A stretch of 64,000 nt of DNA, from the IMG/VR virus record IMGVR_UViG_3300026488_000018, positions 25,721-89,720 of that record; one strand, given 5' to 3'. A program made the position numbers and the translations under genes. Within the stretch, counting starts at the first letter, position 1, and each line of letters opens with the position of its first letter. The stretch is from a virus. The notes below the pieces were generated by a model, which was not told the origin of the DNA, ran no database searches, and saw nothing but the letters and a program-made list of their open reading frames with translations. Shown here in pieces: positions 63,311-64,000 of this stretch.

Positions 63311-63654
63311 GTTTCTTGAGTTTATGGAAGAGAATGGTGCCGAGGTTAATTATGAATATTTGATTGCTAGATGGCGCAAGAATGGGTTTAGTGGTGAATT
63401 TGAGTTTGGTGTGTAATTTGTTGTATTGAACGATGGCTTTTTGTTTATATATAGTTCGAATAGGATGGAGTTTGATGAAATTAAGGATAGGATTTATGGT
63501 GCTGTATATTTCCCGGTTAGTGAGGTTGATAGGATTGGAGATATTGTGAAGAGTATTATACCATTGCCAAATACGATGGGAATGTTTGAACCAAAAACTT
63601 TATAAAGTCTAAAGCCGTAGTATAGAATGACACGAACGGTGGGAGGGCTCGAAG

Positions 63655-64000
63655 ATGAGGAAGGTGTTCGTGAACCTGACTGCCCACAACCTTACGGAAG
63701 AGCAGGTCGAGGAAGCCAAGAGGAGGTTTGGCGTTAGTGAGTTTCTTAGCGCTGAGGATATACTGGATAAAGAAGTTGTTGCGAAGCTAAGGCAGAGCCC
63801 CGGTAATATCGAAGAACTTAGAGCACTTGCGCTTGATGTTGCAGAGGTGCTTGAGCAGTATGCTAGGAAGAATAATGTGGAGCTTTACGTTCACCTACCG
63901 GCGGGAAGCCCAGCGTTTATGTGGGTGTTATCATTAGTGTGGCCATATGGTTGGGCAATACCGGTGTTTAGTCATAGCCGTAGGGAGGTCATAGAGGAGA
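63655..64000 (+). CDS. Csx20-like small CARF-related protein, candidate viral ring nuclease (3' truncated by window)
   Basis: MRKVFVNLTAHNLTEEQVEEAKRRFGVSEF...VHLPAGSPAF...AIPVFSHSRREVIEE; own promoter at about 63591; absent from ORF track because no stop is reached. Confidence 0.6.
   Translation, partial: MRKVFVNLTAHNLTEEQVEEAKRRFGVSEFLSAEDILDKEVVAKLRQSPGNIEELRALALDVAEVLEQYARKNNVELYVHLPAGSPAFMWVLSLVWPYGWAIPVFSHSRREVIEE

Follow-up and report, generated by a model that had tools for sequence, protein, structure and literature searches.

What use would a tailed archaeal virus have for a homologue of Csx20, a protein of type III CRISPR loci? The question is raised by a gene at the end of a stretch of 64,000 bases (the window; G000:C1:25721-89720) taken from IMG/VR virus record IMGVR_UViG_3300026488_000018, a linear sequence of 89,720 bases with a CheckV completeness of 76. 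This csx20-like gene is cut by the end of the record, and the reading which we favour from sequence comparison, with moderate confidence, is that it encodes a viral anti-type III CRISPR ring nuclease directed at cyclic tetra-adenylate (cA4), carried as an independently promoted accessory cassette of a tailed archaeal virus. The initial annotation of this DNA, made from the letters alone, had put forward a candidate of the same kind.

The protein and its family

The window and the record end at the same base, position 64000. When open ends are included in the list of open reading frames (ORFs), a + strand frame is found which begins with the ATG at 63655 and runs to 63999 without a stop, its 3' side being open after 115 amino acids; it was missing from the ORF track because the default listing omits frames which run off the source. 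The translation, with the stretch H-N-L-T-E-E-Q towards its N terminus and SHSRREVIEE at the edge of the window, is the one quoted in the initial annotation, and the frame was confirmed over its 115 codons.

63655..64000, + strand: 5' part (codons 1-115 of 137) of a csx20/MJ1673-family gene, recognised from the ORF, the full-length protein P0001, Csx20 profiles and conserved columns

The 3' end, recovery of which had been suggested as a check, was obtained at the protein level: P0001, a complete form of 137 amino acids in the protein collection, is 100% identical to the 115 residues of the window and comes from a contig of 89,799 bases. A Logan contig from a hydrothermal-vent metagenome (14,983 bases), possibly from the same sample as the virus record and thus of uncertain independence from it, matches positions 62000-64000 without differences and ends 79 bases beyond the window. 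The remaining 22 codons and the stop need 69 of these 79 bases, by arithmetic and not as sequence that was seen, and both assemblies therefore stop approximately 10 nt past the csx20-like stop codon. The contig of P0001 and the Logan contig both break 79 bases past position 64000, which is either a real end or a break induced by a repeat. Three of the four conserved motifs described below are encoded within the window and the fourth (D-G-x-V-x-K...F) lies past the end of the record.

Judged by its sequence, P0001 belongs to the wider Csx20/MJ1673 family. The hidden Markov model (HMM) NF040559 (CAS_Csx20) matches it with an E-value of 1.7e-12 and 47.8 bits over profile positions 3-120 of 124, and matches the 115 residues of the window with 7.2e-7 and 29.6 bits; this is the sole NCBIfam family to match P0001 at E <= 1. 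Two Csx20 models of PADLOC also match it (PDLC01384, 5.3e-11; PDLC01659, 6.6e-10), as do the mixed 'Csx15/20/peptidase' model (1.7e-8) and a CARF-HEPN-Csx20 fusion model (1.9e-4), and the 115-residue part alone reaches 9.5e-7 with PADLOC Csx20. The similarity is therefore far beyond chance, as the naming of a Csx20-like protein in the initial annotation implied, and of the families against which it had proposed an HMM search, Csx20 is matched, together with the mixed Csx15/20 model, while the models for Csx16 and Crn1 give no match to P0001 in NCBIfam (E <= 1) or PADLOC. The Pfam entry PF27247.1, which the ESM Atlas calls the MJ1673 family, is precomputed for all seven near homologues and for 29 of 29 profile matches; scanning the ORF with a local copy of Pfam gave no significant family (best DUF7135, E 0.03), PF27247 being newer than that copy. 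It had also been claimed that the protein is distinct from AcrIII-1, and this held: no part of the record matches the AcrIII-1 family PF08960 (DUF1874) at E <= 0.1, and DUF1874 is not among the Pfam matches of the 115-residue part. For PF08960, as for the accessions TIGR02577 and PF09455 used below, the profile searches gave families of the names expected.

Searched exhaustively with phmmer, a set of 1.84 billion representatives gave 233 clusters at E <= 1e-3, 44 at <= 1e-10 and one at <= 1e-30. An alignment of 136 rows was built from P0001 and 135 of the 150 representatives listed from the 233, 15 rows having been taken out manually: P0075, with 150 amino acids, and 14 others which were fused, partial or of unusual length. 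In this alignment 120 of the 136 rows match NF040559 at E <= 1e-3, the best at 1.6e-31, and a continuum therefore joins P0001 to typical Csx20 proteins. Some members are fused or duplicated (P0073, P0092 and P0124 with about 300 amino acids; P0148 with 483). A family tree (FastTree, 142 rows, 143 columns kept) has good support for 14 of its 139 inner branches; it places neither the viral clade nor the direction of transfer, and no conclusion is taken from it beyond nearest neighbours.

The residues which are conserved across the family are those which P0001 has kept. In the 136-row alignment Q17 is invariant and H11, G84, P86, R110, G120, K124 and F128 are conserved in at least 90% of rows. 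When strongly scoring Csx20 proteins found among the longer matches, P0149, whose Csx20 domain scores 97.7 bits, and P0124, which has two such domains in tandem and scores 193 bits, were included in a further alignment (A4), H11, Q17, G84, R110, D119, G120 and F128 were invariant and P86, S108, E114, V122 and K124 nearly so; every one of these invariant and near-invariant residues is retained in P0001. The motifs given in the initial annotation were thus correct at the N terminus (H-x-L-T-x-E-Q) and approximate at the C terminus, where the conserved form is S-x-R-x-x-x-E followed by D-G-x-V-x-K. PMC8284326, drawing on Makarova et al. 2020, describes His, Arg and Asp/Glu residues which are conserved in Csx16 and Csx20 and would suit the chemistry of a ring nuclease; the conserved polar residues of P0001 fit this set as far as sequence can indicate. 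The ESM Atlas model of the P0001 sequence has a predicted template modelling score (pTM) of 0.79 and a mean predicted local distance difference test score (pLDDT) of 0.83; the nearest structure cluster is that of the MJ1673 family (template modelling score, TM, 0.81), and another neighbour is the cluster of a 767-residue fusion named 'TIGR02221 family CRISPR-associated protein', in which 85% of members carry PF27247. Members of the wider family are expected to have a small CARF-like Rossmann fold and to dimerise around a common cyclic oligoadenylate site; for P0001 the Atlas model bears on this only indirectly.

A different set of candidates was rejected. Transcription activator-like effector (TALE) repeat proteins came up at about 1e-15 in a profile search of the PDB with alignment A2, and are an artefact: the single repeats are insignificant, with independent E-values in the hundreds, and the spurious totals arise because 15 repeats with a string like H-G-L-T-P-E-Q are summed. 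The N-terminal H-x-L-T-x-E-Q motif of the family does resemble the start of each TALE repeat.

What the family does is known from Csx20 itself, which, as stated in the initial annotation, has been reported to degrade cyclic oligoadenylates. In Hoikkala et al. 2025 (PMC12409355) the cloned and purified protein at 1 µM fully degraded 100 µM cA4 to linear products; cyclic hexa-adenylate (cA6) was not degraded and cyclic tri-adenylate (cA3) was degraded at 10 µM enzyme. Among the stand-alone ring nucleases Csx20 is there the commonest (78 loci), and its association with the cA4-activated Csx1 is strong. Catalysis is one possible outcome of cA4 binding, and sequestration is another. It is conceivable, if unlikely, that the viral protein is a cA4 sponge, binding cyclic oligoadenylate tightly with slow or no turnover and so blunting the signal in the manner of Csx15. 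That protein belongs to the same group of predicted ring nucleases, showed no ring nuclease activity in first assays (PMC12409355) and was later described as a good cA4 sponge and a very slow enzyme (PMC13148439); the PADLOC model which lumps Csx15 with Csx20 matches P0001 at 1.7e-8. The best matches of P0001 are nevertheless to models of Csx20, which is an active enzyme (PMC12409355), the conserved polar residues H11, S108, R110, E114 and K124 are retained, and Csx15 was not observed in phage genomes (PMC13148439), whereas Csx20 was. Turnover of cA4 by P0001 thus remains the outcome which we prefer.

The cassette promoter and the viral record

A second claim of the initial annotation, a strong cassette promoter before the frame, is borne out as regards the cassette promoter, its strength being presumed. 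Two elements precede the ATG:

63593..63607, + strand: archaeal-type promoter with an A-rich run like a B recognition element (BRE), then the TATA box TTTATAAA (63599-63606), recognised from motif and position
63640..63649, + strand: purine-rich Shine-Dalgarno-like stretch, 6-15 nt before the ATG, recognised from the sequence and with a presumed function in translation start

The block at 63593 is one of 17 + strand copies of a cassette promoter, spread over an accessory region from 44.9 to 63.6 kb. With a 38-column weight matrix made from the other 16 + strand copies, the held-out csx20 copy scores 29.1 bits, as compared with a maximum of 17.4 bits in 50 shuffles and 14.8 bits for the best + strand site outside the training set. 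Its TATA box is 56 nt from the ATG, against roughly 40-47 nt in most other cassettes. From motif and position the block probably acts as a promoter, and the csx20-like gene may be expressed early. A scan for sigma-70 promoters and terminators found no terminator-like site, a scan which is uninformative for an archaeal virus. The cassette promoter has an 18th copy at 51848, this one on the - strand (32.0 bits); it stands back to back with the + strand copy at 51868, and the two look like a divergent promoter pair.

The same accessory array holds an RNA ligase gene (PF09414, E 5e-18; 60912-61853, + strand), upstream of the csx20-like gene by three copies of the promoter (58521, 61856 and 63599). 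It may be speculated that a viral RNA ligase is a further answer to host RNases, by way of RNA repair.

The csx20-like gene shares its record with viral hallmark genes. Those for the large terminase, the prohead protease and the DNA polymerase, as well as a helicase gene, were found by Pfam in the window:

620-2608: archaeal-type helicase
8795-11431: XkdF-type prohead protease domain
21572-23785: family B DNA polymerase (PolB)
38018-39433: large terminase (TerL)

The csx20-like gene lies neither in nor beside a type III CRISPR-cas locus, and the small ORFs around it have no Pfam family; a location in a virus and outside a cas locus is what an anti-CRISPR function leads one to expect. In base composition, the + strand has a G-over-C skew of 0.24-0.51 in every 2-kb window of positions 1-64000, and nearly all long ORFs are on the + strand. 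The skew stays positive within the csx20-like gene (0.31, the 16th percentile of the 345-nt windows of the record), and its G+C content of 0.496 is at the 98th percentile of such windows. Both values are compatible with a later acquisition of the gene; this is a weak basis and we do not lean on it.

Relatives in other viruses and the presumed host

If the gene serves viruses, it should be of interest where else it occurs. Phage genomes have yielded csx20 before, in 4 of 28,114 cases, for which a role as co-opted anti-CRISPRs was proposed (PMC12409355), and a 2026 paper describes csx20 homologues in predicted anti-CRISPR operons with the ribbon-helix-helix (RHH) regulator Aca14 (PMC13551039). 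In scans of IMG/VR, csx20-like homologues were found on four other contigs. The closest (L023, 57% identity) is intact and sits in the middle of a 25-kb viral contig, between small ORFs and - strand tail genes which include one for a tape-measure-like protein of 613 amino acids; it has its own promoter of the type found in the window, the same first residues and, by inspection, no cas-like ORFs within 6 kb on either side. Two more (L003 and L004, on the same contigs as L024 and L026) have 33-35% identity, the L003 copy adjoining phage replication and recombination genes, and L025 has 28%. A phage collection of 50,697 records held two homologues, in Rhodothermus phage RM378 and in MW202458, which are 31% and 34% identical to P0001, respectively, and are both homologues of the Csx20/MJ1673 family:

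NC_004735.1 289-714: Rm378p002 of phage RM378 (L027), at the end of the linear genome, annotated 'hypothetical protein'
MW202458.1 28282-28701: UOF77075.1 (L028), annotated 'hypothetical protein'

Several of the neighbouring clusters in the Atlas are mostly viral (89% of 55 members, 64% of 122, 82% of 69 and 100% of 61); few of their members have a taxon record, and the shares are based on those few. The nearest homologue with a cellular label (L005, 53% identity) is on a contig of 3,655 bases from a metagenome-assembled genome named 'uncultured Thermococci archaeon'; as this contig consists of a series of small ORFs on the + strand, it too is probably viral.

When ORFs of at least 45 amino acids from L023, L005, L003 and L025 were compared by blastp (E <= 1e-5) with all ORFs of the 89.7-kb record, nothing was shared beyond the csx20-like ORF and its antisense shadows, and the gene is therefore a single-gene cassette common to elements which are otherwise dissimilar. 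Sharing of single genes is typical of counter-defence genes. No Aca-like helix-turn-helix (HTH) or RHH gene was recognised next to the csx20-like gene in the window or in the relatives, and nine of ten neighbouring ORFs of the relatives are without a Pfam family at E <= 0.01, the tenth having only sub-threshold zinc-ribbon matches. These surroundings bear on whether the protein might be a viral sensor or regulatory module, that is, a CARF-like ligand-binding protein which partners another viral protein and is no counter-defence enzyme. CARF-like domains are often sensors fused to effectors, some members of the family are themselves fused or duplicated (P0073, P0092, P0124, P0148), and in this virus the downstream neighbours lie beyond the end of the record. 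We nonetheless regard such a module as very unlikely: the protein stands alone here and in L023, L005, L003 and L025, no neighbour is common to the loci of the relatives and this record, so that there is no conserved partner, and nine of the ten neighbouring ORFs have no recognisable family.

Some of the relatives are accompanied by CRISPR-repeat sequence. The 29 nt directly upstream of the csx20-like gene of L005 match, with 3 mismatches, a unit which recurs every 66-70 nt in arrays of several Thermococci genomes; 11 of 133 Thermococci genomes match this unit, one of them (G116) with 214 copies. A 30-nt CRISPR repeat taken from such an array (L031) occurs as solitary copies in L005 (26/30 at 2486-2515 and 25/30 at 3548-3577), one of them immediately before the csx20-like gene, and in L023 (26/30 at 3997-4026). 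In this virus record its best ungapped match is 20/30, as compared with 19-21 in 20 shuffles, which is chance. A repeat-derived element thus accompanies relatives of the csx20-like gene and is not present in this virus.

A clue to the host is found at the other end of the record. Its first 39 bases (G000:C1:1-39) precede the window by 25.7 kb and can be read as a tRNA gene's 3' half, with T-arm, acceptor strand and CCA; aragorn found no complete tRNA in the virus record. At no more than 2 mismatches this half is present, mostly in more than one copy, in 94 of the 133 genomes of Thermococci species, and its reversed control in none. These matches support a host among the Thermococci, and we take the virus to be, probably, a tailed virus from a hydrothermal vent with Thermococci archaea as hosts. 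The tRNA half hints at integration at a tRNA gene and is possibly an attachment (att) site or the edge of a provirus; it is also a possible reason for the break of the assembly at the start of the record.

The 133 Thermococci species genomes were searched for the family and for its presumed target pathway. NF040559 has a single match, the virus-like L005 contig, and none over its cut-off, leaving 132 genomes without Csx20. The type III protein Cmr2 (TIGR02577) and the Csx1 HEPN domain (PF09455) are each over cut-off in 20 of the 133, and the two are often a few kb apart (for example in G042, G043, G111 and G120). A pathway which a cA4 ring nuclease could disarm therefore exists in the presumed host class. 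Since 132 of the 133 genomes are without Csx20, it is unlikely that the gene was recently captured from a host CRISPR locus, and transfer may have gone in either direction; the 'captured' ring nuclease of the initial annotation is in this respect not borne out.

The same survey bears on which signal the protein would meet. Its target might be a different nucleotide, such as the cA3 of CBASS-like (cyclic oligonucleotide-based antiphage signalling) or type III systems or another cyclic oligonucleotide, and not, or not only, the cA4-Csx1 route. Csx20 did degrade cA3 at higher enzyme concentration (PMC12409355), the viral clade is divergent from curated Csx20 (47.8 vs 70 bits), and the presumed host class makes no use of a Csx20 of its own (1/133). 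We find this quite unlikely given that all the characterised stand-alone ring nucleases of the group prefer cA4 and that Csx20 co-occurs most strongly with cA4-activated Csx1 (both PMC12409355), Csx1 being present in 20 of the 133 genomes. For cA4, then, the expected effector is at hand in a part of the host class.

The gene sits at one extremity of a linear record, 76% complete, the other end of which is a tRNA fragment, and its G+C content is at the 98th percentile of the 345-nt windows. Might it be no working viral gene at all, but host DNA, a chimera joined where the contig ends, or a pseudogene in decay? This we consider extremely unlikely. The frame is intact over 137 codons, its promoter is the repeated block of the virus itself, and the + strand G-over-C skew continues through it (0.31); an intact copy with 57% identity lies in the middle of another viral contig (L023), and Csx20 is lacking from 132 of the 133 Thermococci genomes. 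The Logan assembly, which is independent although it may be from the same sample, spans the junction without differences.

The proposed role

The mechanism which we propose is that the virus would produce, from its own promoter, a stand-alone CARF-like protein of the Csx20/MJ1673 family with about 137 amino acids. During type III CRISPR interference the host Cas10 would make cA4, which the viral protein, probably as a dimer, would bind and cleave to linear products; effectors activated by cA4, such as the RNase Csx1, would then not be switched on, or would be switched off early. The logic would be like that of AcrIII-1 with a different fold family. A counter-defence role of this sort is credible from the sequence comparisons and is of a kind already proposed for phages.

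Several points weigh against it. P0001 (47.8 bits) does not reach the equivalog cut-off of NF040559, which is 70 bits, and its close homologues, seven of seven of which match Csx20, are likewise all below it (30.8-47.8); P0001 is therefore a divergent subfamily of Csx20/MJ1673 and no certified Csx20 equivalog. The H107 of the S-H-S motif of its clade is not conserved in strongly scoring Csx20 proteins, and a phmmer search of the PDB by sequence found no true relative and no CARF protein (best IspH, E 1.2). As Csx15 is a good cA4 sponge and a very slow ring nuclease (PMC13148439), family resemblance is no guarantee of fast turnover. The gene is at the extreme end of the contig, with its downstream neighbours outside the record, and the sequencing runs found to contain the stretch comprise no RNA run and one DNA run, which may be the source sample. 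As to the host, the share of Thermococci genomes with Cmr2 is low (20 of 133), and no CRISPR spacer in these genomes ties the virus (44001-64000) to a type III host: BLAST of this part of the window gave weak matches of 27-47 nt in 10 of the 133, and the five of these loci which were inspected are without direct repeats and none is in a repeat array.

In comparison with known systems, P0001 bears most likeness to Csx20 (NF040559; PF27247). It is in the same size class (about 120-140 amino acids), has a single domain and an HMM match to nearly the whole profile, shares the N-terminal H...Q, the G-x-P loop and the S-x-R-x-x-x-E and D-G-x-V-x-K motifs, and has the MJ1673-family clusters as its structure neighbours in the Atlas; it differs in its lower score (47.8 vs 70 bits), in the extended motifs particular to its clade, and in its place in a virus, where no cas genes were seen close to it, whereas Csx20 is found in type III loci. 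With the csx20 genes carried by phages, including those in csx20-aca14 operons, it has in common that it is virus-encoded and stand-alone, amid small accessory genes, and that the same role is proposed; here, in contrast, the carrier is an archaeal (probably Thermococci) tailed virus, the promoter is an archaeal BRE/TATA promoter of the gene's own, and no Aca-like RHH or HTH gene was recognised beside it. AcrIII-1/Crn2 (DUF1874, PF08960) is similar in its proposed mode, a small viral enzyme which destroys cA4 against type III signalling, and is of a family unrelated to P0001, while Csx16 and Crn1 (the Sso2081-type CARF ring nuclease) differ in that P0001 lacks a sequence-level match to their models.

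The idea that phage-borne Csx20 acts as an anti-CRISPR is already in print (PMC12409355, PMC13551039). No literature report of a Csx20-family gene in a virus of Thermococcales was found, and supplementary lists may name relatives such as RM378. What is new here is that Csx20 is missing from 132 of the 133 Thermococci genomes, the one match being virus-like, that Cmr2 and Csx1 are present in 20 each, and that the gene is the only ORF common to the related viral contigs.

A more far-reaching interpretation can be offered tentatively, and we doubt it more than we believe it. The clade of P0001-P0006, P0008, P0161-P0163, L005 and L023 might be a lineage of Csx20-fold anti-CRISPRs which is maintained by viruses and not borrowed from their hosts, as the lack of Csx20 in 132 of the 133 genomes prompts one to think, and which passes, as a single gene with its own promoter, among archaeal viruses that are in other respects unrelated. 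In L005 and L023 it might be teamed with a solitary host CRISPR repeat, giving a two-layer attack on type III immunity in which destruction of the signal is combined with a repeat-derived RNA or promoter element.

With the concept published, the gain from this locus is incremental, one more clean candidate. If active, the protein would provide a virus of hyperthermophilic Euryarchaeota with a cA4 ring nuclease that is stable to heat, and archaeal viruses would have a second ring-nuclease fold besides that of AcrIII-1. The case for Csx20-fold proteins as widespread means of viral counter-defence, beyond their part as a cellular off-switch, would be strengthened too, and the finding of hosts with Cmr2 and Csx1 and no Csx20, as against viruses with csx20-like genes, bears on where genes of this sort originated.

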